DNA of 64,000 bases, from NCBI GenBank assembly GCA_038040485.1, contig JBBPIE010000033.1, positions 15,633-79,632 on the forward strand. The letters are read 5' to 3'. The notes under the pieces were generated by a model that saw only the letters and a list, made by a program, of their open reading frames with translations, made no database searches and was not told where the DNA came from. The position numbers and the translations under genes are program-made. Source of the DNA: Candidatus Onstottus arcticum. GTDB lineage: Bacteria > Acidobacteriota > Blastocatellia > UBA7656. Numbering within the stretch: position 1 is the first letter of the stretch; every line of letters begins with the position of its first letter. Below, piece after piece: positions 16,278 to 43,517 of the stretch.

Positions 16278-16508
16278 AGTGTTCGAGAGCCGGGAGCCAT
16301 GTGCCGCGGCGGATGCAGAGGCAGCTTGTGTTAGCTGGGGCGGTCACTATAATCACTGCACCCTGCACAACAAGCATTGAACTGATCCTCTGAGGTTTTG
16401 GTGAAAGATGTACTCAGCGCGATGTGGAGCGGACGTTCTGACTATTGATGAGGAGCCCTCCGGTTGCGTCCGTTTCAGTTTCAAATAGAGAGAGGGGAGA
16501 CAAAAGCT

Positions 16509-19460
16509 ATGATCGCTAGGAGGCTTGTCGTATCACTGGTGGTGCTCGCGCTCGTGAGCAATGTAAGCGCATTCGCAGGAACGAGCGCTAGAGCAAAGGC
16601 CACAACTCCGGCCCAGGCGTACACTCTGGTGTCGCTCAAGCACGAGACCGTAGGAGCGCTGACGCGCATCTCGATCGAATCGAGCGCGCCTCCCCTCTAC
16701 ACCGTCTACCGGCCATCGGACCGGCTGATCATCGTTGATCTGCCGGGCGGCGAAGCGTCGGGGCTCGCGCCTCAGTACAAGGTCGGAAGCGACCTGGTCG
16801 ACTCGATCGAGGTGCGCCAATCCAAGCTCGGCGCCCGCCCTGCTGGAAACAAGGCGCTGCGCAGGATGACTCGAATCGAGGTCAGCGTGAAGGCGAGCGC
16901 ACGGGACCGTTCAACGGTTGCCGGCAACACTCTCGTTCTTGAAGTCTCGCCCAGCCCGCAAGCCTCGCCCGCAGAGGCGAAGCTTCAGAAGGAATCCAAC
17001 GCCGCGCCGGACTCCGCCCGCGAGCTCAAACGCGTCGCCGAGAATAGACCCGAGCCGGCTGGCGTTAACCTCTATCCCGCTCCGGTGAGTTCGCCGACTG
17101 CGGTAAAGGCCAGTTCCGCGCCCGAGAAAGTTGCGCCGAAACCCGAAGCGCTAAGGCCCGCACGCCTTATCAAAGAGGTCCGCTCCGAAGCGGCTGACGG
17201 CGTCGTGCGTATCATCGTACAAGCGGATGGCGCGGCTCAGTTCAAAGACTTCGTTCTTCCAGATCCGTGGCGCGTGGTCGTCGACATCACCGGCGTGCGA
17301 AGCGCCTTTGGGAACAGGACCACGACGGTTGGCGGCTCGCTTGTAGATCGAATGCGCGTGGGCCAGCCTGGCCCCAACGTCGTTCGCATTGTGCTCGACA
17401 CAAAATCGAAAGTCCCATACCGCGTTGAACGCTCAGGCGAAACACTCGTTATCACAGTCGGCAGCGGCGGCACCTCCAAGAATGAAACCCTGAAGCCGGC
17501 AGTTGATGCGAAAGCTCAAGCCAGCTCCGCTAAGGATGCCGCAACAGTCAAGCCGGAGGTCAAAGTCGCAGGCGAGCGAATCGAGAACAAGATCGAGCCC
17601 AAGCCTGCCGACTCGACAAAGGAAACGATCACCACTTCCACTTTGATCGCTCAGAACCGGCCCGTGACGGGAGGTCAGCCTCAAGTGGGCGCTCAGCCAA
17701 ACAGAAATCTGCCGCTCCCGGTTCAGCAAAACACTTCAACGGGCGTCAAAGAGACCGTGACGCACTCAGGGCCGGCCGCGGTTAACCGCAGCGCCATGGA
17801 CCTGCAGCGCCCGGGCGCCGGCGGTCAGGCTTCCGGCAAGCCTCGACCTGAGATGGCCTTCTGCGATTCGACCTACGTTGGCGGATTGATCAGCTTCGAC
17901 CTGCGTGCCGGGGTTGATCTGCGAGACATGCTACGGTTCATTTCACAGCAGTACGGCGTGAACTTCATCCTCGACAAATCAGTCGGCGCCGTGCCGGTCG
18001 ACATAAGAATGACCGACGTGCCCTGGAATCAAGTAATGGAGTCGGTGCTGAGAGCTAACCGGCTGGGCGCAGTCTGCGAGAGCAACGGCCGAATGATTCG
18101 AATAGCCACGCTGGCTGCGGTCAAGGAAGAGGAAGAACAGCGCCGCGCGATCGCCGAAGAGCAGGCGAAACAAATTCCGCTGGTCACCAAGATCATTCAC
18201 CTGAAGTACGCGCGCGCGGTGGGAAGCCTGGGAAGCGCTGGGTCGGGCGCTTCCGGCCGGGGCGGCGGCGGTGGTGGAGCGGGTGGCGGAGGCGGCGTGG
18301 GCGGCCAGGGCTCGCTGCTTTCGATCATCAACAGCCGATTGAGCACTCGCGGCCGTATCGAAATGGACGCGCGAACCAACAGCCTGGTCATCACCGACTT
18401 GCCCGAGTACACGGCTGTCATCGAAGACATGATCAGCAAGTTGGACCGGCCCGAGCCGCAAGTCGAAATCGAAGCCCGAATCGTACTCGCAAATCGGAAC
18501 TTCCTTCGCGATATCGGTACAGAGCTGGCAGGCGGGGCAACCTCGAGAGCGGGACAAGCCGGACTCTTCTCAACAACACCCAACCTGCCATCTAACTTCG
18601 GTAGTGGGACGACGGGCGGCACAACCGGCGGTACAACCGGAGGAACGGCAGGCGGCACTGCTGCTCCACTCGGGCCGAATCTGCCTGGCCCACTTCCTAA
18701 CGCCGCACTAAGGGCCGGAGTTGCGAATTCCGTGCTAAGTTTGACAACCGGTCTTCTGGGAACGGGGATTCTGAACCTTGCTCTCAGCGCGTCCGAAACC
18801 AAAGGCCAGATCCGCACGATCGCCAGTCCGCGCGTGACGGCTACCGACAACAAGACCGCCGAGATCGTCAACGGCATACAGATACCTGTGCAGACCGTTT
18901 CCAACAACACTGTGACGACGACCTTCGTAACCGCGGCTCTGCGGCTCGAGATCACGCCGCAAATAATCGAGGAAACCGGCGAGGTGCTGATGCACGTGAT
19001 CGCCGAGAATAACAATGTGAACTTCTCGCTGGCGGGTCAGTTCAACAACGGAACGCCCGGCATAGACACCCAGTCGGCTGAATCGATAGTTCGCGTTGCC
19101 GATGGCGGCACGACAGTGATGGGCGGCATCAACATAGACAGCGAAGGTCACACGCTTAACCGCACGCCCGGTATGTCGAGAATTCCGCTGATCGGTGAGT
19201 TGTTCAAGCGCCGGCAGACACGTCGCGACACGAGCGAGATTCTGTTCTTCATTACTCCTCGCATAGTCAGATCCGAGGGCTCGATGGGACCTACAGCTCC
19301 TCAGCGAAGCTCGGTCGAGGGAGTGCCGAATCCGGTTTCCGCACAGCGAGCTGCGAACGTGCCAGCTAATTCTCCTGTAAAAAAGGACAACAATGCTGTT
19401 CAGAATACTGTAGCTCCGGTTCAGCCGGTTGCAGCCGCCTCGGGCAAGAGCGGACAGTAG
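16509..19460 (+). CDS. pilQ: type IV pilus secretin PilQ with two AMIN domains and long low-complexity inserts
   Basis: Start at MIARRLVVSLVVLALV. AMIN-like repeats (TRISIESSAPPLYTVYRPSDRLIIVDLPG / VRIIVQADGAAQFKDFVLPDPWRVVVDITG). Secretin core (..IASPRVTATDNKTAEI..PGMSRIPLIGELFKRR). Confidence 0.9.
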   Translation: MIARRLVVSLVVLALVSNVSAFAGTSARAKATTPAQAYTLVSLKHETVGALTRISIESSAPPLYTVYRPSDRLIIVDLPGGEASGLAPQYKVGSDLVDSIEVRQSKLGARPAGNKALRRMTRIEVSVKASARDRSTVAGNTLVLEVSPSPQASPAEAKLQKESNAAPDSARELKRVAENRPEPAGVNLYPAPVSSPTAVKASSAPEKVAPKPEALRPARLIKEVRSEAADGVVRIIVQADGAAQFKDFVLPDPWRVVVDITGVRSAFGNRTTTVGGSLVDRMRVGQPGPNVVRIVLDTKSKVPYRVERSGETLVITVGSGGTSKNETLKPAVDAKAQASSAKDAATVKPEVKVAGERIENKIEPKPADSTKETITTSTLIAQNRPVTGGQPQVGAQPNRNLPLPVQQNTSTGVKETVTHSGPAAVNRSAMDLQRPGAGGQASGKPRPEMAFCDSTYVGGLISFDLRAGVDLRDMLRFISQQYGVNFILDKSVGAVPVDIRMTDVPWNQVMESVLRANRLGAVCESNGRMIRIATLAAVKEEEEQRRAIAEEQAKQIPLVTKIIHLKYARAVGSLGSAGSGASGRGGGGGGAGGGGGVGGQGSLLSIINSRLSTRGRIEMDARTNSLVITDLPEYTAVIEDMISKLDRPEPQVEIEARIVLANRNFLRDIGTELAGGATSRAGQAGLFSTTPNLPSNFGSGTTGGTTGGTTGGTAGGTAAPLGPNLPGPLPNAALRAGVANSVLSLTTGLLGTGILNLALSASETKGQIRTIASPRVTATDNKTAEIVNGIQIPVQTVSNNTVTTTFVTAALRLEITPQIIEETGEVLMHVIAENNNVNFSLAGQFNNGTPGIDTQSAESIVRVADGGTTVMGGINIDSEGHTLNRTPGMSRIPLIGELFKRRQTRRDTSEILFFITPRIVRSEGSMGPTAPQRSSVEGVPNPVSAQRAANVPANSPVKKDNNAVQNTVAPVQPVAAASGKSGQ

Positions 19461-20505: not shown

Positions 20506-21687
20506 ATGGAAACGATACCAGCACACGGCGGCAGACTGATAAATCGCGAGCTTGCAGGCGTCGAGCGAGAGACTCTGCTCGAGCGCGTCCCGGCTATGCC
20601 GCGAATCACACTGCGGGCACGCGAGGTCTCAGACCTGGAGATGATTGCTAACGGCGCGTTCTCCCCGCTCGAAGGTTTCATGTGCGAAGACGACTATGTT
20701 GCCGTTCGCGGGAACATGCATTTGGCGTCGGGCTTGCCGTGGACGATCCCGGTCACGCTTTCGACAAGCGAGGAAATCGGGGGCGGGCTGCAACAGGGTT
20801 CGGACATTGCGCTCTTTGCCGGCGACGACCGTCTGCCTAGCGGCGATGATCATCTGCTGGGCGTGCTTCACCTGCGCCAAAAGTTTCGCTATGACAAGCA
20901 GCGCGAAGCCGAGAGGGTTTATCTGACGACCGACACCGCGCATCCGGGAGTTGCGGCGCTTTACGAGCAAGGCGAATGGCTGTTGGGCGGACCGATCAGC
21001 TTGTTGAACCGGCCAAAGAACCCGGCGTTCCCGGTTTATCGGCTGGACCCGGCGGGAACCCGCGCGGCGTTCAACAAGAAGGGCTGGCACCGGGTTGTTG
21101 CGTTCCAGACTCGCAATCCGATCCACAGGGCTCACGAGTACATAATCAAGTGCGCGCTCGAGACGGTTGACGGGTTGCTGCTGCACCCTCTGGTGGGCGA
21201 GACAAAATCTGATGACATTCCCGCCGAAGTGCGAATGGAATGCTACCAAGCGATGTTGGAGCACTACTTTCCCCGCACTCGCACGATGCTGGCGGTAAAC
21301 CCGGCGGCGATGAGGTACGCGGGCCCGCGCGAAGCGGTGTTTCATGCGATCATTCGAAAAAACTATGGCTGCACTCATTTCATAGTCGGGCGCGATCACG
21401 CGGGAGTCGGCAATTACTACGGGACTTACGACGCGCACTACATCTTCAACGAGTTTGACTCCGAAGAGCTGGCCATCACGCCGATGTTCTTCGATCACTC
21501 GTTTTATTGCCGCCGCTGCGACGCGATGGCTTCGAACAAGACGTGTCCACACGACTCATCGGAACACGTCACGCTGTCTGGGACGAAGGTGCGCGAGCTG
21601 CTTGCGAAGGGTGAATTGCCGCCCGGCGAGTTCTCGCGCCCCGAAGTCGCCCAGATCCTGATTCGAGCCATGAGCGGAGCAGGCTAG
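20506..21687 (+). CDS. sat: sulfate adenylyltransferase (ATP sulfurylase)
   Basis: [12 protein letters not shown] and VGRDHAGVG signature motifs. The PUA-like N-terminal domain contains [10 protein letters not shown]. Confidence 0.9.
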
Positions 21688-23335: not shown

Positions 23336-23512
23336 TCACCGCGCGGGACTTCGCAAGCCTCCCGGCTTCCAGCCCCTCACTGCTGAGTTCAGCGTGCTTG
23401 CCGCGCGAGCTAATATCTGCTTTTATTGCTCCGCTTGAGACGTGTAGAGTATAATCCGCTTGCCGTTAAGTAGGCCCTCGCGTGACTGATGGCAGTTGGA
23501 GACCCAACCTCT

Positions 23513-24322
23513 ATGATCAGGTGCGACAACTGTGGGACAAACAATATTGACGGTAGTGAGTACTGCGACGAGTGCGGCATGAGGTTGGACCTGGCGCCTC
23601 CGCCACGTGTTCGCCGAAGCGAGCCACGAATCTACCAGCCACCGAGCGCCGTCGAAAGCGAGCCGGTGCAACCGACGACCCTGGATGGCGCGTTGCCCTC
23701 TCCGCCTTCGTTTACAACTTCCACAAGCGTTCCAAGGGCTGCGAAGCCGGCACGGTCGCAGCGGAGAAACGACTCCAGCGGAGCCAATGCCATCAGCCAG
23801 GCGGGGAACTCCAAGCGCCGCAGCGAAACGATGGAGCGCGGCGCACCGAGCTTTGACTCAGAAGGCAAAATAGCCGAAGCGGTGCGATCAGGCGCGCGCT
23901 CGCCTCAAACGTTTGCGCTCTCGTCGCCGGCTAGAAGGGAAGCGCTGGACGCCGATCGTTCCGCGCCGCCGCTTGCAGGCGACTCACGACTAAAGGCGCG
24001 GCTTGTGGTCGAGCGCGGCGGGCGGGTCGGACGAGAGTTCGCCATCACCGGCATCGAAACAAATATCGGTCGGTGGGATGCCGACAGCGGCATATTTCCA
24101 GACGTCGATTTGGATGAGGACGATCCCGAAGCTAAGATCTCGCGCCGGCATGCCCGCATCGTCAATCACGACAGCCAGTACTTCATCGAAGATCTGGGCT
24201 CGACCAACGGCACGTTTGTGAATCGCGGCAGAAGACTTCTTCCAGGCAAGCGGCAAATGCTTCAGAACGGAGACGAGATCATCGTCGGGAAAACGTTTCT
24301 GAAGTTTCAGGTTCTCAGGTGA
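23513..24322 (+). CDS. zinc-ribbon / FHA domain protein
   Basis: MIRCDNCGTNNIDGSEYCDECG (start preferred because GGAGA lies 13 nt upstream; alternative ATG at 23489). Disordered linker. C-terminal FHA domain (NIGR..SRRHARI..IEDLGSTNGTFVN). Confidence 0.75.
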   Translation: MIRCDNCGTNNIDGSEYCDECGMRLDLAPPPRVRRSEPRIYQPPSAVESEPVQPTTLDGALPSPPSFTTSTSVPRAAKPARSQRRNDSSGANAISQAGNSKRRSETMERGAPSFDSEGKIAEAVRSGARSPQTFALSSPARREALDADRSAPPLAGDSRLKARLVVERGGRVGREFAITGIETNIGRWDADSGIFPDVDLDEDDPEAKISRRHARIVNHDSQYFIEDLGSTNGTFVNRGRRLLPGKRQMLQNGDEIIVGKTFLKFQVLR

Positions 24323-24323
24323 T

Positions 24324-24357
24324 GGTTTCTGGTTTATGGTTTTTGGTTTCCGGTTCG
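24324..24357. repeat. tandem heptamer array (GGTTTNT x5), half-element without a clear partner arm
   Basis: ggtttct ggtttat ggttttt ggtttcc ggttcgc, immediately after the stop at 24322. The repeat unit is the same as at 38509-38615. Confidence 0.7.
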
Positions 24358-24424
24358 CACCCCCAAAGCAACACAAGGGCCTGGATCTGAGAGACCATAA
24401 GTCAGGAACTCGGAACCGATCGTT

Positions 24425-26062
24425 ATGTTTTGTCCAGAATGCGGACACCCATTAGAGCCAGGAGATTCGGTTTGTGGAAAGTGTGGAGCCCGGCAGCAAC
24501 CGGTGCCGCCTGCACCTCCACCGGTCGTCGTGAGCGCCCGGGTGAGCGCTGAGGAGCCTATGCCCGAGTCCAAAAAGCCAAAGCAGCCGGCGACCCAGCA
24601 ACTCGAGCCGGGGACGCTCTTGCTGGACCGCTACTCGATTGTTCATCGAGTCGGCGGCGGCGGTATGGGCTCGGTGTATCAGGCCCGCGACAAACGGCTG
24701 GCGGAACGCCTTTGCGCGGTCAAAGAGATGATCGAGATGTTCGCCGATCAGGCGCAGCGGGCAAAGGCCGTCGAAGACTTCAAGCGAGAGGCGGAAGTGC
24801 TTGCGCAGCTCGATCATCCGTCCATCCCGACCGTGTTCGACTACTTCATTGAGAGCGGCCGCTACTATCTGGTGATGAGGTGGATTGGCGGCGGCGACCT
24901 CGCCGACCAGATGCGATTGCGGCAAGGTGTCATCGAAGAGTCGATTGTCACCAAGTGGGCCATCCAGATTTGCGATGTGCTGCATTACATACACCAGCAG
25001 CGGCCGCCGATTATCTATCGCGACTTGAAGCCCGCAAACCTGATGCTGGACGACAAGACCGGCCGGGTGATGCTGGTGGACTTTGGGATTGCTCGGATAG
25101 TGCGGCCAACCGAGAAGGGCGTCACCGCGATAGGCACTATGGGCTACGCGCCGCCCGAGTTGTTTGCGGGCAAAGTCGAGCCGCGCTCGGACATCTACTC
25201 GCTTGGAGCGACGATGTTTCACATGCTGACCGGCTCGGACCCGCAGGACAATCCTCTTTTGATCTTCGACTTCAGCAAGAACCCTCGGCCATGCCAGATC
25301 AATCCGGCGATCTCGCCAGAGATGGAGCGGATTCTGATGAAGTCGGTGGCGCACAAGCCCGAGGACCGGCATTCGTCGTCGCTCGAGTTCATGCGCGCGC
25401 TTGAAGAACACAGCGGCCGTCTTGAATCGCGGCCGCGAATTGAGCAGCCGAGACCCTCGCCGGCTCGCCCTCGCACACCGGCGGGCAGTGCTTATCCTCC
25501 GATCAGCTCGGCCCCCCGTGAGCCGCGTTCAGGCACAGCGAGTTCCGCCGCGGCGGGCGGCTCAGCGCTGGCTAGCGGCGCTGCGATCGAATGGGTCTTC
25601 TGCGGGCATTGCGGCGAGAAGATAGGCGGCGACGATGTCTACTGTGCACATTGCGGACAGCGTCAACCAATGGCAGGTGCAGCAGCCGCGGGATACGAGG
25701 GATCCGGCGCCGCCGGACGCATCACCGCGCAACTGCTCATCGTCGGGACCAATGACATGGTCAAGCCGTTCACTATCGACAAGGAGAGCGTGCTGATCGG
25801 GCGCACTGACCCGCACACTGGCATCTTTCCAGAGATCGACCTCACCATGTATGACCCCGAGACCAAGGTCTCGCGCAAACACGCTAGAATCTACCGGCAG
25901 GGCGAACAGTTCCTCGTCGAGGACCTGGGATCGGTGAACGGAACAGTGGTCAACTCGACCACCGGCGGCTCTGTCAGACTCAACGCAAAAGCGCCCCGTG
26001 TGCTCACAGCCGGCGACGAATTGAAGCTCGGCGGAACCATTTTGCAATTCAAGATGGTCTAG
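24425..26062 (+). CDS. Ser/Thr protein kinase with N-terminal zinc ribbon, internal zinc ribbon and C-terminal FHA domain
   Basis: MFCPECG..CGKCG. Hanks motifs: CAVKEM (Lys), YRDLKPANLM, VDFGIAR, GYAPPEL. Second ribbon CGHCGEKIGGDDVYCAHCG. FHA domain (LIGR..SRKHARI..VEDLGSVNGTVVN). Confidence 0.9.
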   Translation: MFCPECGHPLEPGDSVCGKCGARQQPVPPAPPPVVVSARVSAEEPMPESKKPKQPATQQLEPGTLLLDRYSIVHRVGGGGMGSVYQARDKRLAERLCAVKEMIEMFADQAQRAKAVEDFKREAEVLAQLDHPSIPTVFDYFIESGRYYLVMRWIGGGDLADQMRLRQGVIEESIVTKWAIQICDVLHYIHQQRPPIIYRDLKPANLMLDDKTGRVMLVDFGIARIVRPTEKGVTAIGTMGYAPPELFAGKVEPRSDIYSLGATMFHMLTGSDPQDNPLLIFDFSKNPRPCQINPAISPEMERILMKSVAHKPEDRHSSSLEFMRALEEHSGRLESRPRIEQPRPSPARPRTPAGSAYPPISSAPREPRSGTASSAAAGGSALASGAAIEWVFCGHCGEKIGGDDVYCAHCGQRQPMAGAAAAGYEGSGAAGRITAQLLIVGTNDMVKPFTIDKESVLIGRTDPHTGIFPEIDLTMYDPETKVSRKHARIYRQGEQFLVEDLGSVNGTVVNSTTGGSVRLNAKAPRVLTAGDELKLGGTILQFKMV

Positions 26063-26146
26063 GTTAAGTTAGGCCGTGGTCGGAAGTCGCGGCTGTCGCG
26101 TCACGTTCGATCATGACCGCGCCGCCTACTCCCCGGGGCTCTTGCA

Positions 26147-26896
26147 ATGACGAAATACTGTCCATACTGCGGCAAAGAGCTTAACGACCGATCGAAATTC
26201 TGCCCGCAATGCGGCAAGGCCAAGCCTGCAAGGAACCGCCCGGCTGCAGTAGCCGTCGGCGAGCCGCACTCGCAAGACCCGGGCACTCAATCCGCAGTGC
26301 CGGGAACTGCACCGTTCCGAAGCATGGAGCGAGCTTCGGGCGCAGAGCGGGTGTCGCCGGGTGTTGATCCGATCGCCAGGCCGAGGACCACCGTTTCGAG
26401 GCCGGCAAACGGATCGGCGGCGGCGATCCGCAGCGCTCCGCGCCGCTACGCGCCACCGACTCATGCGCTGATCGGCGCGTTTGAACAAGCGGGCTTCGGG
26501 TTACGCTACGGAGCCTGGATGTTTGATTTTCTGATTACGCTGATCGCGATCATGGTCTTCACTTTCATCGTGACCGCGGTCAGTCATCGTTCGGTTGTTG
26601 GCTCGAACCGCGATCTTCTGATCGTAACCGTGCTGACCGCGTTGCTGTTTGTTTTGAATTTCGTCGCGCTTGCCGGCTCGAATGGTCAGAGCGCCGGTAT
26701 GCGCATTCTGGGTATCTACATCGTGCGTGTGGACGGCAGGCCGTTTTCCATGAAGGACGCCGTCCTGCGCCATCTGGTTGGGTATCCGCTCTCGATGTTG
26801 GCGTTCTTCCTCGGGTTTCTCTGGGTATTGTGGGACCCGCGGCAGCAAGGCTGGCACGACAAGATCGCGCGCACAATTGTAGTGATGTCAAAGTGA
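26147..26896 (+). CDS. zinc-ribbon / RDD-family membrane protein
   Basis: MTKYCPYCGKELNDRSKFCPQCG. The C-terminal half has 3 TM segments and the RDD-type ending WHDKIARTIVV. Confidence 0.75.
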   Translation: MTKYCPYCGKELNDRSKFCPQCGKAKPARNRPAAVAVGEPHSQDPGTQSAVPGTAPFRSMERASGAERVSPGVDPIARPRTTVSRPANGSAAAIRSAPRRYAPPTHALIGAFEQAGFGLRYGAWMFDFLITLIAIMVFTFIVTAVSHRSVVGSNRDLLIVTVLTALLFVLNFVALAGSNGQSAGMRILGIYIVRVDGRPFSMKDAVLRHLVGYPLSMLAFFLGFLWVLWDPRQQGWHDKIARTIVVMSK

Positions 26897-26899
26897 ACC

Positions 26900-27077
26900 G
26901 ATTTTGGGTTTTAGATTTTGGATTTGAGGAAACATGAGCGTGATGCGTGATGCGTGATTCGTGATCCGTGAGGCGTGATCCGTGAGCCGGCAGAGTTTCC
27001 GGTCACGAATCACGCATCACGAATCACTCTTGGTTCCCTAATCCAAAATCCAAAATCTAAAATCCAAAATCCAAAAC
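26900..27077. repeat. compound ~180-nt hairpin built from two nested tandem-heptamer arrays (GATTTTG-type outer, CGTGATN-type inner)
   Basis: The outer arm 26900-26929 (gattttgggttttagattttggatttgagg) is complementary to 27039-27077 (taatccaaaatccaaaatctaaaatccaaaatccaaaac). The inner arm 26938-26990 (gcgtgatgcgtgatgcgtgattcgtgatccgtgaggcgtgatccgtgagccgg) is complementary to 26999-27027 (ccggtcacgaatcacgcatcacgaatcac). It fills the whole intergenic gap. Confidence 0.85.
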
Positions 27078-27081
27078 GCCT

Positions 27082-28845
27082 ATGCAAACTTTCATCGTTA
27101 GACCAAAGGATTACGAACCTTCGACTTATAAGCTGGACAAGTCGAAGCTGACCATTGGCCGCTCTTCGCGCAACGATATCTGCATCGGCGATCCGTTCGC
27201 GTCCCGGCTTCACGCGGAGATCCGCCTCGAAAACGATCAGGTGCTTCTGGTCGACAACGGGAGCGCCAACGGAACCTTTCTGAACGGCGTTCGTGTGACC
27301 GGCACGATCGGCCTCGAGCCTGGCGACACGATTCGGATCGGCGAGACTGAAATAGAATACTCATCCGACTCGCAATCGATGTTGTCGGGTGCAACTGTTT
27401 ATTTGTCGGGCCCGATCGCCGATTCGCTGCCTGCTGACACTATCACTTCGCCGATCGCCGGTCGCAATACATCGGATTTGATCTCCTCGATCCGTTCGGG
27501 CTCAATCACCGGCGATGTGAAGCCTGCGTCAGGCGCGCGCGCGCAAATGGCGACCGAAGCTCCGAGCCGCGATCTTCTCAGCATCGTCTCGCAAGTGGGC
27601 ATCGCGCTTCTGCCGCGCACCTCGCTCGAAGACACGTTGAAGATGACCATCGACCTGGTGTTCCAGGCGATCCCAGCCGAACGCGGATTCCTGTTCTTAA
27701 AGGAAGACGGCGACCTGACCTGCAAAATCGCGCGGGGCGCAAACGAAGCGGCGCTGCCGGGCGCGTCACAGGTCCAGCTAAGCCGGTCGATCACGAACAA
27801 GGTCATCAGCGAGGGAACTTCGGTGTTGACCTCGGACGCCATGAGCGACCCGAGATTTCAGTCTCAGAACTCGGTCGTGCTCAGCCAGATAAGATCGGTG
27901 ATGGCCGTCCCGTTGGCTTCCAGCGAAGAAATTTTCGGAATGATCTATGTGGACAATCCGTTCCACAGCCGGTTCAAGGAAGAAGACCTCAATGTTCTGA
28001 AGACAATAGCTTCGGTCGCCTCGATCAAGATCGAGCACGAGAGGCTGCTCGACGAGCGGCTCGAGAAACGGCGAATGGAAGAAGAGCTGAAGGTCGCATC
28101 TGAAATTCAGATGAGGCTCCAGCCTTTCGCGCCCCCGAAGATAGACGGGTGGGACATGACCGGCGTGTCGTTTCCTTGCCGCGAAATCGGAGGCGATTAC
28201 TACGATTTCATCAGACGTAAACGGGACAACCGCCTGATTGTCGCGGTGGGTGACGTTTCGGGCAAGGGGACCGGCGCGGCGCTTCTTATGTCGTCGCTCC
28301 ATGCCGCCGTTCGCGCGCAGTCGCAGACTCGCTCGACAATCAGCGAAGTGATGGGCGAGATCAATGCCTACATCTTCGAGAACTCGCCGCCCAACAAGTT
28401 CCTCACTCTGTTTTACGGCGAACTCGATCCTGAAACCGGAACGCTTCGGTATTCGAACGGCGGGCACAATACCCCGTTTCTTCTCCGCCGGCCGGGCGAG
28501 ATCGTGTACCTGGACCAGGGCGGGCTGCCGATCGGTATGATGGAGAGCGCCGCGGCCTATGAGGAGGGTTCGGTTACGTTCGAGCCTGGCGACGTGCTTG
28601 TAATCTACAGCGACGGCATAACCGAATCGGTCAATGAGAAGGACGAGGAGTTCGGTGAGTGGCGGTTGACCGAAGTGCTCAAGAACAACCTCAAACGGTC
28701 TGCCTCCGGCATCCGTGACCGCGTCGACGAAGCGCTCTCACGGTTCGTGGGCACAACGCCTCCGGTCGATGACATGACGCTGATGATCATCAAGCGAACC
28801 GACGGTGAATTAGTCGACGACAGCGAGAGGACCATGCGTTCCTAG
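27082..28845 (+). CDS. FHA - GAF - PP2C (SpoIIE-type) protein phosphatase
   Basis: N-terminal FHA domain (LTIGRSSRNDICIGDPFASRLHAEI..VDNGSANGTFLNG). Central GAF-like region. PP2C motifs GGDYYDF, VGDVSGKG, IYSDGITE, DDMTLMII. Confidence 0.85.
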   Translation: MQTFIVRPKDYEPSTYKLDKSKLTIGRSSRNDICIGDPFASRLHAEIRLENDQVLLVDNGSANGTFLNGVRVTGTIGLEPGDTIRIGETEIEYSSDSQSMLSGATVYLSGPIADSLPADTITSPIAGRNTSDLISSIRSGSITGDVKPASGARAQMATEAPSRDLLSIVSQVGIALLPRTSLEDTLKMTIDLVFQAIPAERGFLFLKEDGDLTCKIARGANEAALPGASQVQLSRSITNKVISEGTSVLTSDAMSDPRFQSQNSVVLSQIRSVMAVPLASSEEIFGMIYVDNPFHSRFKEEDLNVLKTIASVASIKIEHERLLDERLEKRRMEEELKVASEIQMRLQPFAPPKIDGWDMTGVSFPCREIGGDYYDFIRRKRDNRLIVAVGDVSGKGTGAALLMSSLHAAVRAQSQTRSTISEVMGEINAYIFENSPPNKFLTLFYGELDPETGTLRYSNGGHNTPFLLRRPGEIVYLDQGGLPIGMMESAAAYEEGSVTFEPGDVLVIYSDGITESVNEKDEEFGEWRLTEVLKNNLKRSASGIRDRVDEALSRFVGTTPPVDDMTLMIIKRTDGELVDDSERTMRS

Positions 28846-29477: not shown

Positions 29478-32400
29478 CTAAACTTTGGTCTGTTCCGCCG
29501 TCGCGCCGATCACTCTTCCTAACTCCGCAAGCAACTCGTCGCGGCTGAAGTTCCCTTTCTGAATTATTCGGGCGGTCCCGATGTCGAGCGCGCGCCGCTC
29601 TTCGTGCGACAGATCGCGCGCGGTCAGTAGCACTACCGGTATCGAGCGCCAATCCGGATTCAAACTCAGGCGATGCACCACCTCGAAACCGTCCATCCCC
29701 GGTAGCATCAAGTCCAGAATGATTGCGTCCGGCTTCGCGCGAGCAATCTCTTCAAGCGCTTGCCGTCCGTCAGTCGCGGTCTGTACCTCGTAGCCCCGGT
29801 CGCCGATCATCGCAAGAACGAGATCGAGCGCGTCTGGGTCATCGTCCACAACAAGGACGCGGCCCGGCGAGGCCGACCCCGCGCGTTCGAGCACCGCGAT
29901 TAGCGCCGCGCGTTCGACCGGCTTGCGCAGGAATATGTCCGCTCCGGCGTCCAGCGAAGTCTGTTCCGACTCGGCGTGCCCGGACAATGCGATGATCGCA
30001 CCGTGCTTCTCAGAACTCGCCAGGCGCTCGACAATGCGAATCGCTTCTTCGACCGAGTCAAGATCAACCGTAATGACTGCCGGCCGCGCCAGCCGCGCGA
30101 TCTCCGCGCCGCGCGCCGGATCGTCCGTCGCCGCGACCGAGTAGCCCGCTTCGGTCAAATACTTCTTGGTCAGGTATAGCGACGCATGATCGCCATCGAT
30201 CACCAAGGCGGTCTTGTCGGGGTCTGCGGCCGGGGCTTCAACTTCGTCGGCCGGCGCCGCGTGACCTTCGATCTCGATCGGCAGAGTCACAGCGAATGAA
30301 GAGCCTTCACCAAGCCGGCTCGTTACATCAATCCGGCCGTCCAGCATCTCTACAAGCCGCCGGGTGATCGCAAGACCCAATCCCGTCCCGGTTCTGGCGC
30401 CCCGGCCCGAGCCGCCAACCTGACGGAACTCTTCGAATACTCTCCCGAGGTCCGACTCGGCTATGCCGACGCCGGTGTCGCTTATGGTGATCCGAATTTG
30501 ATCGCCGCCGGCGCGTTCGGCTGCAACACGCACCTCGCCTTCCTGGGTGAACTTGACCGCGTTTGACAGAAGGTTGATCAGTATCTGCTGAAGCTTCGTG
30601 CGGTCGGTTCGCAGGGCAGGCAGCCCGTTCTCGACTCGGCTTACGAGTTGAATCGGCCGGCCCTCTTTCAACGACTCGACAACGCCGAGCGCGCGCTCGA
30701 TCAGGTCGCGAGCGTCCGCAGGCTCGGCATAGACATCCATCCGGCCCGCTTCGATCTTCGACAAGTCGAGTACGTTGTTGATCAGCCCGAGCAAGTCGCG
30801 CGCGTTTCGTGAAACACGTTCGAGGCTTCGGCGGTGCCGGTCGTTCAAACGCAGCGAGCGGTCGTCTACGAGCAACGACGTGAATCCGATGATCGCGTTC
30901 ATCGGCGTCCGAAGCTCGTGTGACATATCGGCAAGGAACCGAGCGCGCGACTGCGCATCAAGCGCAAGCCGCCGGTTCTCCTCGATCAGGACGCGGTTGC
31001 GTTGTTCGAGGTCGGCGCGTGCGCGTTCGCTCGCTTCCGCGCGAGTACCAAGCCTGAGGGCTGTTTCTTCGAGCCTGGCGGACAACGACTCGAACTGCTT
31101 GATCGCTTCTTCGAGTTGCAGATTCACTTCTTCAACCGAACTCTTTTCCTTCTCGAGATCCGCCGAGCGAAGGCTTTGCGCGGCAAGCTCCTCTTCAAGG
31201 CGCGTGGCGGTCTCGCGGAGAGCCGTGTTCTGCACCCCCGAAGCCGCAACCCGTCCCTCGGCTTGCGCTCGCGTCTCGGCAAGCTCTTTGTTGAGCGAGG
31301 CGTTCTCCTGCTCGACAAGGCTTGCGCGTCCGTCCGCAACAGCGAGTGCTTGCATCAACTCGGAGTTAAGCGAAGTCAGCCGCGCAAGTTCTGCATCGCC
31401 GCCGCCGCGCTGGGACTTCGCAAGCTCGCTTCTGAGCCGCTCAACCTCTGCAACCAGTTGCTCGTTCTCGCCGCTCACCCGGCTGTTCTCGACAGTCAGC
31501 CGCTCGCGGTCCTCGGTGGCATCCGCGATGTTCGACTCAAGCTGAACTACGGTTTGCTCGAGCCTCGACCGCGAATCCTCGGCCATCTGCAGCGAGCGTT
31601 CGAGCTCGGTCACGCTGGCCGAGAGAGCCGCTCGCTCACCTTCGAGCGCGGCGGCCGATTCTTCAAAGGTCGAATCGCGTTCACCGATCCGCGCGGACTG
31701 TTCTTCCAGACGAGCGGCGCGCGAGCTGACTTCCTCGAGTTCGCGCGTGCGATCGGCGATCTCGTCGGTGAGCGCGAGACGCGCGCGGCTGAAATCACTG
31801 AGACTCGCTTCGAGCGCGACAAGCCGCCCCTTGAGTTGCTGATTCTCCTCCTCGAGCCTGTGTCTGTCCGCTTCCAGGTGGTAAGCCATCTCGGATGCCT
31901 GGTGTCCGCTCTCTTCCTGCATCTTTGACAGCGCTTCGTTCTCCTCGCGCAGTTGCCGGGTCTGAGTTTCCAGCTCCTGCAGCCGGCGGCCGGCTTCCCC
32001 GGTCGCACCGGCAAGCGCCTCGCGCTCAACCCTCAGAAAGGCCAGCGACTCTTCGAGCTCGCGCTCTCGCGTTGTTGCCTGAACCGGCCTGGCTGGGGAA
32101 CCGTCCCCCCCTAGCCGCTCTCTCAGCGAGTCGCACCGCGACTGAAGCTCGGCGACGCGAATCGCTGCGACTGCCGCTGGTGCAAGCGCGTCTATCGTCT
32201 CCAGTTCGTCTTGTCGAATCGGCCGGCGGTTGAAGACGCCGATCAGCCCGATTGTGCCGGACGCGCTTCTGAGCGGGTAGAGCGCGTAGGAGTCCGAGCT
32301 GTCGGGTTGTTTGCTGTGCTGAAGGCTGAACAGCTTTTCTCCGGTTACGTTCGCTTCGGTGAAATCCGAGATGCCGCCACTGGTGATCAACGGCGCCTTG

Positions 32401-32732
32401 AAAACCGACAGCGGAATGCGCGGATACTCGCGGTCTATCTCTGCGCCGCTCGCTGCGATCAGGTGCATGCACATCTGCCGGTTCGTGCATATCTCGGCGA
32501 GTGCGCAACGCTCACAGATGTCGCCGCGCTTGACGACCCAAATCTTGCACGTCGGAGATCCAATGTCAGTCGCGACCTGCTCGGCGATCAGGTCCAGCGC
32601 GCGTTCCAGGCTCGAGCCGCGGCCGACTTCGTCAAAGATCTGCCGTATTCGCATTTCTCGGGATGTTTGCATTTTTCGAGTGAGCGCGGGAGCTAGCGTT
32701 GTCCGGCTTGACCATCCTGCTTCAATGGCCAC
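29478..32732 (-). CDS. hybrid sensor histidine kinase: GAF - ~400-aa coiled coil - HisKA - HATPase - degenerate REC - REC
   Basis: H-box FLADMSHELRTPMNAIIGF. N/G boxes (LLSNAVKFT, DTGVGI, GTGLGLAI). Terminal receiver VLVVDDDPD..ILDLMLPGMDG. The N-terminal GAF-like domain has a Cys-rich insert, CERCALAEICTNRQMC. The start may be an internal Met (MQTSREM or MRIRQIF). Confidence 0.85.
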   Translation of the reverse strand: MAIEAGWSSRTTLAPALTRKMQTSREMRIRQIFDEVGRGSSLERALDLIAEQVATDIGSPTCKIWVVKRGDICERCALAEICTNRQMCMHLIAASGAEIDREYPRIPLSVFKAPLITSGGISDFTEANVTGEKLFSLQHSKQPDSSDSYALYPLRSASGTIGLIGVFNRRPIRQDELETIDALAPAAVAAIRVAELQSRCDSLRERLGGDGSPARPVQATTRERELEESLAFLRVEREALAGATGEAGRRLQELETQTRQLREENEALSKMQEESGHQASEMAYHLEADRHRLEEENQQLKGRLVALEASLSDFSRARLALTDEIADRTRELEEVSSRAARLEEQSARIGERDSTFEESAAALEGERAALSASVTELERSLQMAEDSRSRLEQTVVQLESNIADATEDRERLTVENSRVSGENEQLVAEVERLRSELAKSQRGGGDAELARLTSLNSELMQALAVADGRASLVEQENASLNKELAETRAQAEGRVAASGVQNTALRETATRLEEELAAQSLRSADLEKEKSSVEEVNLQLEEAIKQFESLSARLEETALRLGTRAEASERARADLEQRNRVLIEENRRLALDAQSRARFLADMSHELRTPMNAIIGFTSLLVDDRSLRLNDRHRRSLERVSRNARDLLGLINNVLDLSKIEAGRMDVYAEPADARDLIERALGVVESLKEGRPIQLVSRVENGLPALRTDRTKLQQILINLLSNAVKFTQEGEVRVAAERAGGDQIRITISDTGVGIAESDLGRVFEEFRQVGGSGRGARTGTGLGLAITRRLVEMLDGRIDVTSRLGEGSSFAVTLPIEIEGHAAPADEVEAPAADPDKTALVIDGDHASLYLTKKYLTEAGYSVAATDDPARGAEIARLARPAVITVDLDSVEEAIRIVERLASSEKHGAIIALSGHAESEQTSLDAGADIFLRKPVERAALIAVLERAGSASPGRVLVVDDDPDALDLVLAMIGDRGYEVQTATDGRQALEEIARAKPDAIILDLMLPGMDGFEVVHRLSLNPDWRSIPVVLLTARDLSHEERRALDIGTARIIQKGNFSRDELLAELGRVIGATAEQTKV

Positions 32733-37431: not shown

Positions 37432-38508
37432 CTAGGCGGCTTCAGCGTCACCCTTGAGCTTCTCGGCTTGATAGTGCGCAACCAGCGCGTCTATCAACTC
37501 CCCGATGTCGCCTTCCATGAAAAGGTTCAACTGGTGGGACGTGTAGCCAATGCGATGATCCGTGACGCGATTGTCTTTGAAGTTGTACGTGCGAATCTTT
37601 TCCGAACGGTCGCCCGAGCCTACCATCGAACGCCGTTCGCTCGCGATAGCCTGGTGCTGTTTGTCCTGCTCCATCTCGAGCAGGCGCGAGCGCAGCACTC
37701 GCATCGCCTTCTCGCGATTCTTGATCTGCGACTTTTCGTCCTGCATCGACACAACGGTGTTTGAAGGAAGGTGAGTTATTCGCACAGCCGAGTAAGTCGT
37801 GTTCACCGACTGGCCGCCGGGACCCGAAGAGCAGAACGTGTCGATGCGTAAGTCCTTCGCATCTATCTTGATGTCGACTTCTTCGGCCTCAGGAAGAACG
37901 GCGACTGTGATAGCCGACGTGTGAATGCGGCCCGATGCTTCGGTCTGAGGAACGCGCTGGACTCGATGAACGCCCGATTCGTGTTTGAGCTTCGAGTAGA
38001 CGCGCGTGCCTTCGATCAGCAGGATCGCTTCCTTGAGACCGCCGATGCCTGACTCGCTTGCTTCCAGGACTTGAACGCGCCACTTCTGCCGCTCGCCGTA
38101 TCGCGTGTACATGCGAACGATCTCTGCAGCGAACAGCGTAGCTTCATCGCCGCCGGTCCCGGCTCGAATCTCGAGTATGACGTTCTTCTCGTCGTTCGGA
38201 TCTTTTGGCAACAGCAAGACTTTCAGCTCGGCTTCAATGGCATCGCGGCGCTCTTGAAGCTCCGCCAGTTCGCCGCGTGCCAGCGCAAGCATCTCGGCGT
38301 CATCTTCGGCGGTCAACATCTCCTCCGTCTCGGCTACGCCGCGGGCAAGCGATTTGTACTCGCGATACTTGCCGACGATTTCTTCGAGTTCGCGGTGTTG
38401 CCGCGCCGTGCGGGTGTACTTCTGCTGGTCCGCCAGCAGCTCCGGATCGCTGAGCTGTTGCGAAACGTCTTCAAGCCTTAGTTCGATTGCATCTAATCTG
38501 CTAAACAT
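37432..38508 (-). CDS. prfA: peptide chain release factor 1
   Basis: GGQ motif ([18 protein letters not shown]). RF1-type tripeptide region [14 protein letters not shown]. Confidence 0.9.
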
Positions 38509-38615
38509 GGGTCTCTGGTCTGTGGTTTCTGGTTTGTGGTTTCTGGTTTGTGGTTTCTGGTTCGTGTCCGCCGGCTTCTTTCGAACCGGAAACCAGAAAC
38601 CAGAAACTAGAAACC
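38509..38615. repeat. hairpin of tandem GGTTTCT-type heptamers abutting the prfA start codon
   Basis: Left arm 38509-38564 (gggtctctggtctgtggtttctggtttgtggtttctggtttgtggtttctggttcg). Loop tgtccgccggcttcttt. Right arm 38582-38615 (cgaaccggaaaccagaaaccagaaactagaaacc). The right arm overlaps the stop of the DUF1385 gene. Confidence 0.85.
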
Positions 38616-39710
38616 AACGTTTGCCGGCTCCAGCTTAAGCGACTCTTTCAGAGCATAGATCGCGACTTCCAACTGAGAATCGTCCGGTTCTTTCGTCGTG
38701 ATGTTCTGAAGCCACAATCCCGGCCGCGTGATCACCGAGAAAAACCATTGAGCCTTGCTGTTCGCCGACGCGCGAATAATCTCGTAAGACACACCGGCTA
38801 CCACCGGGATCAGCATCAGCCTCACAAGGAAGTTCAAAAACAGCGAGTCGAACTTCACCACCGAGAACGCGACTATCGAAACGATCATCACCACCATCAG
38901 AAAGCTCGTGCCGCAACGCGGGTGCTGCCGCCGCTTGGTGCGCGCGTTAGCGACCGTCAGCTCTTCGTCAGCTTCCCAGGTGTAGACGACTTTGTGCTCG
39001 GCGCCGTGATACTCAAAGACCCTTCGGATGTCACGAAGCAACGAGAAACTCGTGATCATTATCAGGAAGAACGTCATTCGTATCAGCCCGTCCACCAGGT
39101 TGAAAGCGACCGAAGGCCTGATCGGATGCAGCGCCGCGCGCAGCCACGCCCACGCGTCCGCGTACCACGTGCCGCTCGCCGACGCCGCGCCCATCGTCCC
39201 GCCTTCGAGATAGACAAAGAGCATATTGGTCAGCAGCAAGGGCAGCACGATAAACAACAGGACGTTGAAAAACAGGGCGAAGATAATCGATCCTGCCGCG
39301 CCTGCCGTTGTTGTCTTCCTGGCTTTTTGGGTTTTCGCCGCGGCGGACGGCCTGGACGCTGTCGCGACGCCTACAGCGGCGGTTGTCCCAAACATCGGCG
39401 TCACTCCGGGCGCCAACGGCTCTACTTTCTTGTCGTCCGCCGCGTCGCTCTCGGCTTCGTGAAAAGCCACATTGGCCGAAAAGTTCAACGCCTTGATCCC
39501 CAGCACCATCGATTGAAGAAGCACAGCCGAGCCGCGCAGCACCGGCAGCTTCAAGATCGGGTACTTCACCGAGAGCGCCGGCAGCAACTCGCTCTTTGAG
39601 ACGATCTCTCCGTTTGGCTTGCGGACCGCGACCGCGTACGAATGCGGTGCGCGCATCATCACGCCTTCGATGACCGCTTGCCCGCCGACGATGATCTGGT
39701 CTTCTCTCAT
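38607..39710 (-). CDS. DUF1385 (YqhQ-like) membrane protein
   Basis: [17 protein letters not shown]-terminus, EYHGAEHK motif, multi-TM. Sits in the conserved position between rpmE and prfA. Confidence 0.8.
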
Positions 39711-41222: not shown

Positions 41223-41564
41223 ATGAGCACGATGACTTGTGATTCAACCGCGGTGGTTCTGACGGATGATGAAATCGCCCACAGGTTAGCGGCGCTGACG
41301 GGTTGGTCAAACAACGGGAGGTGGATCGAGAAGACCTACCGGTTCAAGAACTTCCTGCGTGCGATGTCATTCTTGAACGCCGTGGCTTACCTTGCCGAGT
41401 CTGTCAATCATCATCCGGACTTGATGATTCATTACCGCGAACTGACTGTTCGCAACTGGACTCACATAGCTGGCGGCATAACAGAACACGACTTCTCGCT
41501 CGCTGCGAGGATTGACCAGCTAGTCCGCGATCACGAATCCAGACGAGAATCAAACCAGGGGTAG
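41223..41564 (+). CDS. pterin-4-alpha-carbinolamine dehydratase
   Basis: Size (113 aa) plus AESVNHHPDLMIHYRELTVRNWTH (HHPD motif). Confidence 0.85.
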   Translation: MSTMTCDSTAVVLTDDEIAHRLAALTGWSNNGRWIEKTYRFKNFLRAMSFLNAVAYLAESVNHHPDLMIHYRELTVRNWTHIAGGITEHDFSLAARIDQLVRDHESRRESNQG

Positions 41565-41570
41565 TTCGAA

Positions 41571-42266
41571 ATGGCGCTCATACCTGACAAAGACCAGGCG
41601 ACGATCCGAACTCACTTCGTCGAGCACCTCGAAAGCGACGTCGAGATAGTGATGCTTACCGAGCGGCCTTCGCCAATCATCATCCCCGGCAAGCAAGGCT
41701 GCGAGACGTGCGAGGATACAGAGAGCTTGCTCAAGGAAGTCGTGGCGCTTTCAGACAAGCTCAAGCTGACGGTGCACGACGTCAGCGTCTCGAAAGACGA
41801 AGCTCTCAAACTGGAAATCGATCACGTTCCGGCGTTCGTCATCAATGGAGCCGCGCGAGGCAAAGTGCGCTTCTTCGGAATCCCGTCAGGCTATGAGTTC
41901 TCGGCGTTGATCGCCGACCTCGTTGACGTATCGAGAGGGACGACTGATCTCTCGGATGAGACTCGCGAGTATCTCTCGGCGCTCACCGAAGACATGAACA
42001 TCAAAGTATTTACGACCCCTACCTGACCGTATTGCCCGCCTGCGGCCAGGTTGGCCCACCAGATGGCGGTTGAAAGCGAGCGAGTGACGGCCGATGTGAT
42101 CGAAGCGATGGAGTTCCCCGATCTCGCGCGGCGGTACGCGGTGAGGGGCGTTCCTAAGATTGTCATCAACGACCTCGCCGAGTTTGTTGGAGCTTTGCCT
42201 GAAGCGGAGTACCTCGCACAGATTCGGGCGGCAGTCGAAGCGAATGGAAGCAAAGCAAACGAGTAG
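41571..42266 (+). CDS. two-domain glutaredoxin-like protein disulfide oxidoreductase, probable selenoprotein (UGA at 42024-42026 read as Sec, UPYC motif)
   Basis: ORFs 41571-42026 and 42051-42266 share one frame and are separated only by the TGA. Read-through gives ..NIKVFTTPT-U-PYCPPAARLAHQMAVE..EFPDLARRYAVRGVPKIVIND. This is the canonical second thioredoxin-fold unit of archaeal/bacterial PDO-type proteins (TPTCPYCP...VPxIVI). The first unit carries CETC. Confidence 0.6.
42036..42069 (+). promoter_or_regulatory. candidate bacterial SECIS hairpin
   Basis: CCGCC (42036-42040) pairs with GGCGG (42065-42069). The apical stem GGCC (42044-42047) pairs with GGCC (42053-42056), with loop AGGUU. 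The loop G/U nucleotides lie 23-26 nt after the UGA. Confidence 0.4.
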
Positions 42267-42314: not shown

Positions 42315-43517
42315 ATGGACTTCGAGTTTTCCGACAAGGTGAAACAGCTTCAAAAAAAGGTCACGGCATTCATGGATGAGCACGTCTATCCGAATGAGAA
42401 GACGTACCACAAACAGATCGACGAGGGCGATCGATGGCAGCCGACGGCGATAATCGAAGAGCTCAAGCCGAAGGCGCGCGCCGAAGGGTTGTGGAATCTC
42501 TTTCTGCCTGAGAACCCGTTCGGCGAAGGATTGTCGAACCTCGAGTACGCGCCGCTGTGCGAAATCATGGGGCGCTCGCCGATGGCGCCCGAAGTCTTCA
42601 ACTGCTCGGCGCCCGACACCGGAAACATGGAGGTGTTGGCGCGCTACGGGTCGGATGAGCAAAAAGAGAAATGGCTAAAGCCGCTGCTCGACGGCAAGAT
42701 TCGTTCGTGCTTCTCGATGACCGAGCCGGCGGTCGCCTCGTCGGATGCGACTAACATTCAATCAAGCATAGCGCGTGACGGCGACAGCTACGTCATCAAC
42801 GGCCATAAGTGGTGGAGCTCCGGCGCCGGCGATCCGCGCTGCAAGATCTCGATTTTCATGGGCAAGACCGATCCCACCGCGCCGACTCACAAACAACAGT
42901 CGATGATCCTTGTGCCGATGGATGCGCCGGGCATCAGGATCAAGCGGATGCTTACGGTGTTCGGCTACGATCACGCGCCGCACGGACACGGCGAAGTGAC
43001 CTTCGAGAACGTGCGCGTGCCGGCGTCGAACCTGCTGCTAGGCGAAGGACGCGGCTTCGAGATCGCTCAGGGAAGACTGGGGCCGGGGCGGATACATCAC
43101 TGCATGAGACTGGTCGGGCTTGCGGAGCGGTCGCTGGAAACAATGTGTAAGCGAGTCAGCTCGCGAGTTGCGTTTGGCAAGAAACTCTCGGAGCAGGGGA
43201 CGATTCGAGCCGACATCGCAACGCATCGAATTGAGATCGAGCAGGCGCGACTCTTGACGTTGAAGGCCGCTTACATGATGGACACGGTCGGCAACAAGAC
43301 GGCTCGCGCGGAGATAGCGATGATCAAGGTGATCGTGCCAAACATGGCTTTGCGAGTGATCGACAGTGCGATACAGGCTTGCGGCGGAGGCGGCGTGAGT
43401 CAGGAGTTTGAGCTAGCGGCGGCGTGGGCGGGCGCTCGAACGCTGCGGTTGGCCGACGGCCCTGACGAAGTGCATCGCGAAGCTATAGCCAAGCTCGAGC
43501 TGAAAAAGTACGAGTAG
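42315..43517 (+). CDS. acyl-CoA dehydrogenase family protein (ACAD10/11-like)
   Basis: [29 protein letters not shown]-terminus, [11 protein letters not shown], and a C-terminal DGPDEVH motif typical of this subfamily. Confidence 0.85.

Follow-up and report, generated by a model that had tools for sequence, protein, structure and literature searches.

Does an in-frame TGA in a redox gene of Candidatus Onstottus arcticum (Acidobacteriota; Blastocatellia) end translation, or is it decoded as selenocysteine (Sec)? The gene lies at 41571..42266 on the forward strand of the 64,000-nucleotide stretch of contig JBBPIE010000033.1 analysed here, which we refer to as the window and whose coordinates are used throughout. 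An earlier reading of these letters (the original prediction) had proposed a protein disulfide oxidoreductase (PDO) split into two open reading frames (ORFs) by a TGA at its first C-terminal redox cysteine. Based on family searches, comparison with related loci and conserved RNA structure, we consider it very probable that 41571-42266 is one gene and that UGA 42024-26 is decoded as Sec. The predicted selenoprotein would be a two-domain PDO (TIGR02187 / AhpF-N-terminal-domain-like), an assignment based on matches to TIGR02187.2, Pfam and the Protein Data Bank (PDB).

A single reading frame with PDO architecture

Translation confirmed that one frame is divided by a single TGA. The first ORF starts at ATG 41571 and ends at 42026 (151 aa) with ...NIKVFTTPT-TGA (EDMNIKVFTTPT-TGA), the TGA occupying 42024-42026. 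Beyond it the same frame continues uninterrupted (PYCPPAARLAHQ... / PYCPPAARLAHQMAVESERVTADVIEAMEFPDLARRYAVRGVPKIVIND...ANE; PYCPPAARLAHQMAVES...GVPKIVIND...ANE) and is closed by TAG 42264-42266, giving 231 codons if the TGA is read through. Two pieces appear in the ORF list, 41571-42026 (151 aa) and 42051-42266 (71 aa, TTG start), and a public gene call for an identical contig has the same split, with genes of 151 aa and 67 aa that both match Thioredoxin_3. The TGA is not an assembly artefact, since contigs from three independent metagenome runs on permafrost cover 42024-26 with 0 discrepant bases; sequences from two different runs (L081 and L082) each encode the 151-aa product. A further 51-nt contig in one run (X2) has 4 differences across the stretch 42021-42071, which includes the UGA and the hairpin described below, and suggests a co-occurring strain variant.

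For profile searches of the 231-aa product the TGA was translated as Cys (U -> C). The product matched the NCBIfam model TIGR02187.2 "PDO_seleno_TRX, protein disulfide oxidoreductase" with 252.1 bits against a curated cutoff of 185, over residues 6-220 and profile positions 2-208 of 209, and Pfam Thioredoxin_3 matched it in two stretches. The best solved structures were the PDOs of Pyrococcus horikoshii (1J08, E 2e-43) and P. furiosus (1A8L, E 6e-42), with further matches to Aquifex (2AYT, 2YWM) and Aeropyrum (2HLS) proteins; E-values for 1J08, 1A8L, 2AYT and 2HLS ranged from 2e-43 to 4e-30. The alignments extend over residues 2-221 of 1A8L and 25-221 of 1J08, and place CETC on the N-terminal CQYC, TPT-TGA-PYCP on TPTCPYCP, and GVPK on the cis-proline motif AVPK. 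The TGA thus stands where PDOs have the first Cys, the nucleophile, of their C-terminal CPYC, as had been anticipated from the TPTCPYCP motif of PDOs.

Based on these alignments, the product of 41571-42266 is predicted to consist of two tandem thioredoxin folds, with a CETC site in the N-terminal and a UPYC site in the C-terminal fold. The N-terminal redox motif C44-E-T-C47 (41700..41711, +) aligns with CQYC of 1J08, and its CxxC is kept in the homologues P0001-P0006. The C-terminal motif (42024-42035, +), which begins with the predicted Sec codon U152 (42024..42026, +), aligns with CPYC of the same structure. The cis-proline motif of the C-terminal domain, V194-P195-K196 (42150..42158, +), lies 3′ of the UGA, where GVPKIVIN corresponds to AVPKIVIQ of 1J08.

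The hyperthermophile PDOs (1A8L, 1J08, 2AYT, 2HLS) thus share full-length homology, two CxxC-type sites and the VPK cis-proline with the window protein. However, both redox residues of their C-terminal site are Cys and their translation needs no RNA element, whereas the window gene has UGA at the first. The N-terminal domain of AhpF has the same tandem thioredoxin-fold arrangement and detectable homology, but is more distant (1HYU and 1ZYN, E 1e-8 to 3e-8; TIGR03140, E 9e-18). Unlike AhpF, the window protein is a stand-alone polypeptide of 231 aa without the flavin/NADH reductase module, and AhpF models reach 64 bits against a cutoff of 503. Pfam annotation of the neighbouring genes identified no adjacent ahpC.

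The TGA in relatives and Cys codons elsewhere

Close matches in a protein search were of two kinds, full-length proteins of ~225-240 aa and many of exactly 151 aa, the latter with 75-100% identity across 65% of the query. Given this exact length, the 151-aa proteins are truncated at the same place as the window ORF. In GenBank records of metagenome-assembled genomes (MAGs) the 151-aa piece is named "thioredoxin family protein", and the JGI name is "AhpF".

We therefore read the active-site codon in 80 loci (L001-L080) from a scan with one genome per species. TGA occupies exactly the same codon in 30 related loci and the window (31/31), at 44-85% identity to the window. These comprise 23 Blastocatellia/Acidobacteriota loci (L001-L023, two of them in bins that are labelled Clostridia but show the gene order of Blastocatellia) together with Ktedonobacterales (L024, L026), Chloroflexota (L025, L050, L067), Symbiobacteriaceae (L040) and Krumholzibacteriia (L079). 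The other scorable orthologues have TGC or TGT at that codon (49/49), and every non-UGA orthologue is one fused protein. Alignment with Cys-containing orthologues thus agrees with the proposal that the TGA sits at a Cys/Sec substitution position. The Sec form seems to be predominant in the soil and permafrost Blastocatellia clade.

Some records in this set deserve comment. Both bins labelled uncultured Clostridia (L003, L008; 72-75% identity) have the Blastocatellia order of DUF4097, pterin-4a-carbinolamine dehydratase, PDO, acyl-CoA dehydrogenase and short-chain dehydrogenase genes, so that they were probably assigned to the wrong taxon or hold misbinned contigs. The bin of L025, labelled Sphingomonadaceae, also bears a Sec-type PDO gene. 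A close Cys-form homologue, P0004 (260 aa, from a 45-kb contig), has extra internal sequence, inserted or duplicated, directly ahead of the active site (...VNVKEFTTNPPPADIRQQGGSGRLSPVHIKVFTTPNCPYC...), such that the strand leading into CxxC occurs twice; this repeat may be genuine or the product of a chimeric assembly.

Whether the part after the TGA is translated was addressed with the codon positions of nucleotide differences, compared pairwise among the window and 23 Blastocatellia-type orthologues. Over the 60 codons before the TGA, differences were distributed 19%, 13% and 68% among positions 1, 2 and 3, with 68% of differing codons synonymous. The 66 codons after the TGA gave 20%, 12% and 68%, with 67% synonymous; after the true stop the figures were 33%, 33% and 33%, with 5% synonymous. 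The 3′ part is therefore constrained by purifying selection in the same way as the 5′ part, and so is translated. The frame is open for 72-86 further codons of conserved sequence in all 30 TGA loci, and the cis-proline motif of the GVPK region is kept in each of these UGA-bearing relatives (30/30).

UGA ends approximately 24 of the 57 longest non-overlapping ORFs of the window, including genes whose Pfam domains reach the C-terminus, and global UGA reassignment was rejected on the grounds that UGA is an ordinary stop for these ORFs. A naive scan for other window ORFs with a single in-frame TGA returned ~150 candidates, nearly all of them off-frame noise in this 58% GC DNA. Only 42024 had protein-like context on both sides as an interrupted gene; two protein-like cases, at 59865 and 49518, were rejected as adjacent genes sharing a frame.

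A hairpin of bacterial SECIS type follows the UGA

An alignment of the 31 UGA-bearing sequences was the basis for consensus folding, pair counts and covariation. RNAalifold independently found a two-helix hairpin at 42031-42070 (+), within the coding sequence, in the position expected of a bacterial selenocysteine insertion sequence (SECIS). Its lower stem of 6 bp joins 42031-36 to 42065-70 (AUUGCC/GGCGGU), and its upper stem pairs GGCC 42044-47 with GGCC 42053-56 around the apical loop AGGUU (42048-52), in which an A48-U52 pair is optional. The internal loops between the stems are asymmetric (7 and 8 nt). The apical stem and loop are those of the original prediction, with loop G/U nucleotides 23-26 nt after the A of the UGA. 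The lower stem proposed there, CCGCC/GGCGG, was in the wrong register: it can form in the window sequence alone, and was rejected because it is paired in 58.7% of cells across the 31 sequences, compared with 95.2% for 42031-36/42065-70.

Across the UGA genes 96.1% of cells are paired in the consensus structure, versus 12-58% in controls whose 3′ partners were displaced by 1-3 columns. None of these controls, and 0/500 shuffles, exceeded the consensus structure's covariation score of 0.189. The outermost upper-stem pair (alignment columns 27/39) is GC in 23 sequences, AU in 4, CG in 1 and UA in 1. These compensatory changes fall at the third positions of two Ala codons, GCG..GCC becoming GCA..GCU in four sequences and GCC..GCG in one, and therefore preserve both the amino acid and the RNA pairing. 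The Symbiobacteriaceae gene L040, with TGA at the aligned codon, has the same hairpin with a compensatory CG pair.

Criteria for bacterial SECIS elements (bSECIS) follow the bSECISearch model of Zhang & Gladyshev 2005, summarised in PMC13188914. They specify a loop of 3-9 nt on a stem of 4-16 bp, a G at position 1 or 2 of the loop (typically N1-G-[G|U]-N-N2), 16-37 nt between UGA and loop, and an energy of <= -7.5 kcal/mol (PMC13188914). In the window, the loop is 5-nt AGGUU on 4 bp, or GGU on 5 bp with A-U closing. G occupies position 2 of A-G-G-U-U and is followed by another G, the position-2 G being kept in 30/31 UGA genes. The spacing is 21 nt (42027-42047), identical in 31/31 sequences and, as had been proposed, within the range for bacterial elements. 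The named structure has -12.3 kcal/mol, and the 54 nt that follow the UGA have a minimum free energy of -18.1. Taken together, 29/31 UGA genes show all four properties in the same register. Based on these features, we infer that the hairpin at 42031-42070 is a typical bacterial SECIS with predicted SelB binding. Like the archetypal SECIS of Escherichia coli fdhF, it is a stem-loop in the coding sequence directly 3′ of the UGA with a small G-bearing loop, but the two have no sequence similarity.

The same structure averages -12.0 kcal/mol in UGA genes and +1.1 in the 49 Cys orthologues, and the full upper stem is present in 28/31 of the former versus 9/49 of the latter. This separation persists at equal distance. 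Seven UGA genes are 44-53% identical to the window in protein sequence; five of them lie between -8.5 and -10.4 kcal/mol, L067 has -4.7 and L079 forms a shifted stem. Cys genes of that identity range give values from -6.6 to about +5 kcal/mol. The hairpin thus tracks UGA, not relatedness, and the case that would have spoken against recoding, a shared TGA without hairpin conservation, is not what the relatives present, as 96% of pairs are kept. The Krumholzibacteriia gene L079 (3418-3480) retains Val (A-V-Q) and has +0.5 kcal/mol in the common register, with an alternative stem-loop shifted by ~1 nt, UGUGC-AGUUG-GCACA (-5.7 kcal/mol), that may be an independently evolved or diverged SECIS.

The protein itself carries a trace of this element. 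Among L001-L080, the residues that follow the active site are P-x-A-A-R in UGA-type genes, compared with P-x-A-V-R in nearly all Cys-type genes (42039-42047, Ala157-Ala158). The extra Ala in place of the usual Val lies six residues after Sec, and its codon, GCC, supplies the 5′ side of the upper stem, so that the RNA structure seems to dictate the A-for-V change in the protein.

Evidence against Sec decoding and alternative explanations

Several observations weigh against Sec decoding of this gene. No selA, selB, selD or tRNA-Sec was found in the 64-kb window or in the loci of 31 relatives: Pfam annotation of 50 window ORFs gave no match to SelA, SelB, SelD or AIRS, and ARAGORN reported 0 tRNAs in the window and 0 in 31 related loci, hence no tRNA-Sec. 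RNA-seq runs holding the gene were likewise looked for and none is listed. The upper stem, at 4 bp, is the minimum of the consensus model. Folded alone, the window sequence 42024-42075 is unremarkable (z = -0.39, with 65/200 dinucleotide shuffles folding as well), and the significance of the hairpin therefore comes entirely from the comparative data. Of the two kinds of check envisaged for it, the four published bSECIS criteria agree with the hairpin, but Rfam covariance models gave no match, either at gathering thresholds over the whole window or at E <= 10 on 41950-42150. The lack of an Rfam match does not count against a SECIS, as the short length and diversity of these elements in bacteria put them beyond the reach of such models.

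A further point against this reading comes from the nearest relatives with a Cys codon (TGC/TGT; P0001, P0002, P0003 and P0006, 63-76% identity), which retain much of the hairpin (L083:1306-1368, L084:1948-2010, L085:1144-1206, L086:1948-2010). It is complete in L083, with all 10 pairs, lacks one upper-stem pair each in L085 and L086, and is without the loop G's in L084. Within the immediate clade, therefore, presence of the hairpin does not strictly imply UGA. The DUF4097 and acyl-CoA dehydrogenase genes that flank the PDO gene in the window also flank it in L083, which is thus the orthologous locus after a TGA -> TGC change. We read the hairpins beside TGC/TGT as probable fossil SECIS elements left by recent Sec-to-Cys conversion, a process that has been described for other families (PMC1794560).

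Three other explanations were considered. In one, the TGA is a true stop, and a 151-aa CETC protein is accompanied by a separate fragment of ~67-71 aa started at TTG 42051 or ATG 42063. Automatic gene callers do predict 151-aa and 67-aa genes that each match Thioredoxin_3, and purifying selection downstream of the TGA is also expected of an independently translated fragment. The original prediction had maintained that this fragment has no ATG or Shine-Dalgarno sequence of its own before Met 42063; no ATG precedes that residue and no recognisable Shine-Dalgarno sequence lies before 42051 or 42063, but an in-frame TTG does exist at 42051. From neither start would the fragment include UPYC, leaving it, as had been argued, without a redox centre, and it would also lack the first strand and helix of the fold. 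Met 42063 is Leu in three UGA relatives (L024, L026 and L050), and internal initiation there is therefore not conserved. Moreover, the 12 codons from the UGA to Met 42063 (PYCPxAARLAHQ) are protein-like, with the resolving Cys invariant in 31/31 sequences, and the non-UGA orthologues are all single fused proteins. An independent start is unlikely given the missing Shine-Dalgarno, the Met-to-Leu change, the protein-like codons and the fragment's want of a redox centre, and we consider production of two polypeptides very improbable. A Cys codon turned to TGA in a decaying gene, or a sequencing error, has in its favour that TGC/TGT -> TGA needs one base change and that GenBank MAG records label the 151-aa product "thioredoxin family protein". 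Nevertheless, the same TGA recurs in 31 sequences of 44-100% identity and, contrary to what decay would predict, none of them has further stops or frameshifts. The three runs agree on the bases, and the selection pattern 3′ of the TGA matches that of the 5′ coding sequence, which excludes a pseudogene; the probability left to decay or error is negligible.

It is also conceivable that the UGA and hairpin are read as another residue, namely Cys via an opal suppressor of the selC*/SelB* type, or Ser or another amino acid via an allo-tRNA. Allo-tRNAs, possible nonsense suppressors, occur in Acidobacteria, and selC* tRNA-Cys(UCA) together with a dedicated SelB* reads Sec-type UGA as Cys (PMC5389517). 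The Sec machinery is not seen in the window of this genome, and Cys is clearly functional at the site, being present in 49 orthologues. However, selC* is known from Firmicutes, Thermodesulfobacteria, Nitrospirae and Proteobacteria, not Acidobacteria, and all selC*-bearing genomes also had a complete Sec system (PMC5389517). For Cys, a plain TGA -> TGY change would suffice without a recoding apparatus, whereas UGA and SECIS have long been retained across 65-85% identity, arguing for a different inserted residue, and no suppressor tRNA was detected in the window or related loci. In view of the tRNA(Sec)-like suppressors of Mukai et al. (PMC5389517), a small probability is kept for a non-Sec residue, which we regard as quite improbable.

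Proposed mechanism

Under Sec decoding, the hairpin at 42031-70, just 3′ of the UGA in the mRNA, would offer its loop A-G-G-U-U to SelB. SelB would bring Sec-tRNA(Sec) in competition with release factor 2 (RF2), such that selenium is inserted at the UGA and translation runs on via PYC...GVPK... to TAG 42264-66. Sec152, placed where the first helix of the second thioredoxin fold starts, would act as the attacking nucleophile and Cys155 as the resolving residue, with a Sec152-Cys155 selenenylsulfide replacing the disulfide. Such a pathway depends on selA, selB, selC and selD, which we infer to be present in this genome.

We also considered whether UGA and SECIS in Blastocatellia might form a selenium-dependent switch, in which the complete two-domain Sec-PDO would arise when selenium is at hand and a lack of selenium would yield a functional stand-alone 151-aa CETC protein, or might be read as Cys or Ser by tRNA(Sec)-like allo-tRNAs. 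This idea is improbable in our view. If either the switch or the alternative decoding were true, an abundant aerobic soil clade would provide a natural system for facultative recoding.

Genomic neighbourhood

The gene for a pterin-4a-carbinolamine dehydratase (41223..41564, +; Pfam PF01329, E 8e-31) ends 6 nt before the PDO start codon. Given this short gap the two genes are probably co-transcribed. The dehydratase gene does not belong to the recoding device; it lies upstream of the PDO gene in 13/23 Blastocatellia-type loci. The PDO gene is followed by genes for an acyl-CoA dehydrogenase and a short-chain dehydrogenase, and on its upstream side there is a DUF4097 gene on the opposite strand. 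This gene order, kept in most Blastocatellia loci, supports orthology but says little about the substrate. Across these loci the acyl-CoA dehydrogenase (42315-43517) has 86-92% identity, compared with 65-82% for the PDO and 49-71% for the pterin dehydratase.

Elsewhere in the window, an ATP sulfurylase gene (20506-21687; PUA_2 and ATP-sulfurylase domains) is located 20 kb away with nothing linking it to the PDO gene. Enzymes of this class also activate selenate, and it may bear on selenium assimilation. The interval 37432-39710 on the reverse strand contains a gene for a class-I peptide chain release factor (PCRF and RF-1 domains, 358 aa, uninterrupted) with a DUF1385 gene immediately upstream on the same strand; the factor would be RF1 or RF2, and as RF2 it would compete with SelB for UGA. 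A type IV pilus assembly cluster at 13047-19460 encodes PilM, PilO and a 998-aa secretin with an AMIN domain (PilQ), and its ORFs of 241 aa and 211 aa are likely PilN and PilP, respectively. Signalling genes with FHA and zinc-ribbon domains span 23489-28845, encoding an FHA protein, a zinc-ribbon Ser/Thr kinase with FHA, a zinc-ribbon RDD protein and an FHA-GAF-SpoIIE (PP2C) phosphatase, and are followed by a 1084-aa hybrid histidine kinase on the opposite strand (29478-32732).

Relation to known selenoproteins and significance

The selenoprotein family to which this gene would belong has reportedly been catalogued since Kryukov and Gladyshev in 2004. An AhpF-N-terminal-domain-like family with a UxxC motif is listed in two reviews (PMC9312934, PMC13188914). 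It occurs in Carboxydothermus hydrogenoformans and Symbiobacterium thermophilum, and selenoproteins have been recorded in Acidobacteria (PMC1794560). The representative is ABB15282.1 of C. hydrogenoformans, and Asgard archaea have members too (PMC1794560, PMC9312934, PMC13188914). The window protein shares with this catalogued TIGR02187-type family the model, the two-fold architecture and a UxxC with Sec first in the C-terminal site; its likeness to ABB15282.1 is drawn via the family model and descriptions rather than a direct alignment. It differs from the known members in belonging to a large clade of aerobic soil and permafrost Blastocatellia whose public records show only the truncated 151-aa form. 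A literature search for Blastocatellia together with selenocysteine returned no paper mentioning both, and the prevalence of the Sec form across Blastocatellia appears to be unrecorded so far. The window gene is a soil-acidobacterial addition, in practice a new clade, to an established selenoprotein family.

What is known of the mechanism of Sec decoding is unchanged by this finding. For annotation, it means that two entries should become one selenoprotein, here and in dozens of orthologues from soil MAGs of Blastocatellia and other groups: each gene is deposited as a truncated protein of 151 aa, named "thioredoxin family" or "AhpF", and a separate orphan fragment. With its live SECIS elements, fossil hairpins and the Ala-for-Val imprint on the protein, the clade offers a natural series for Sec/Cys interconversion. 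These acidobacteria of permafrost and soil are also probable users of selenium, which bears on trace-element ecology in soils.

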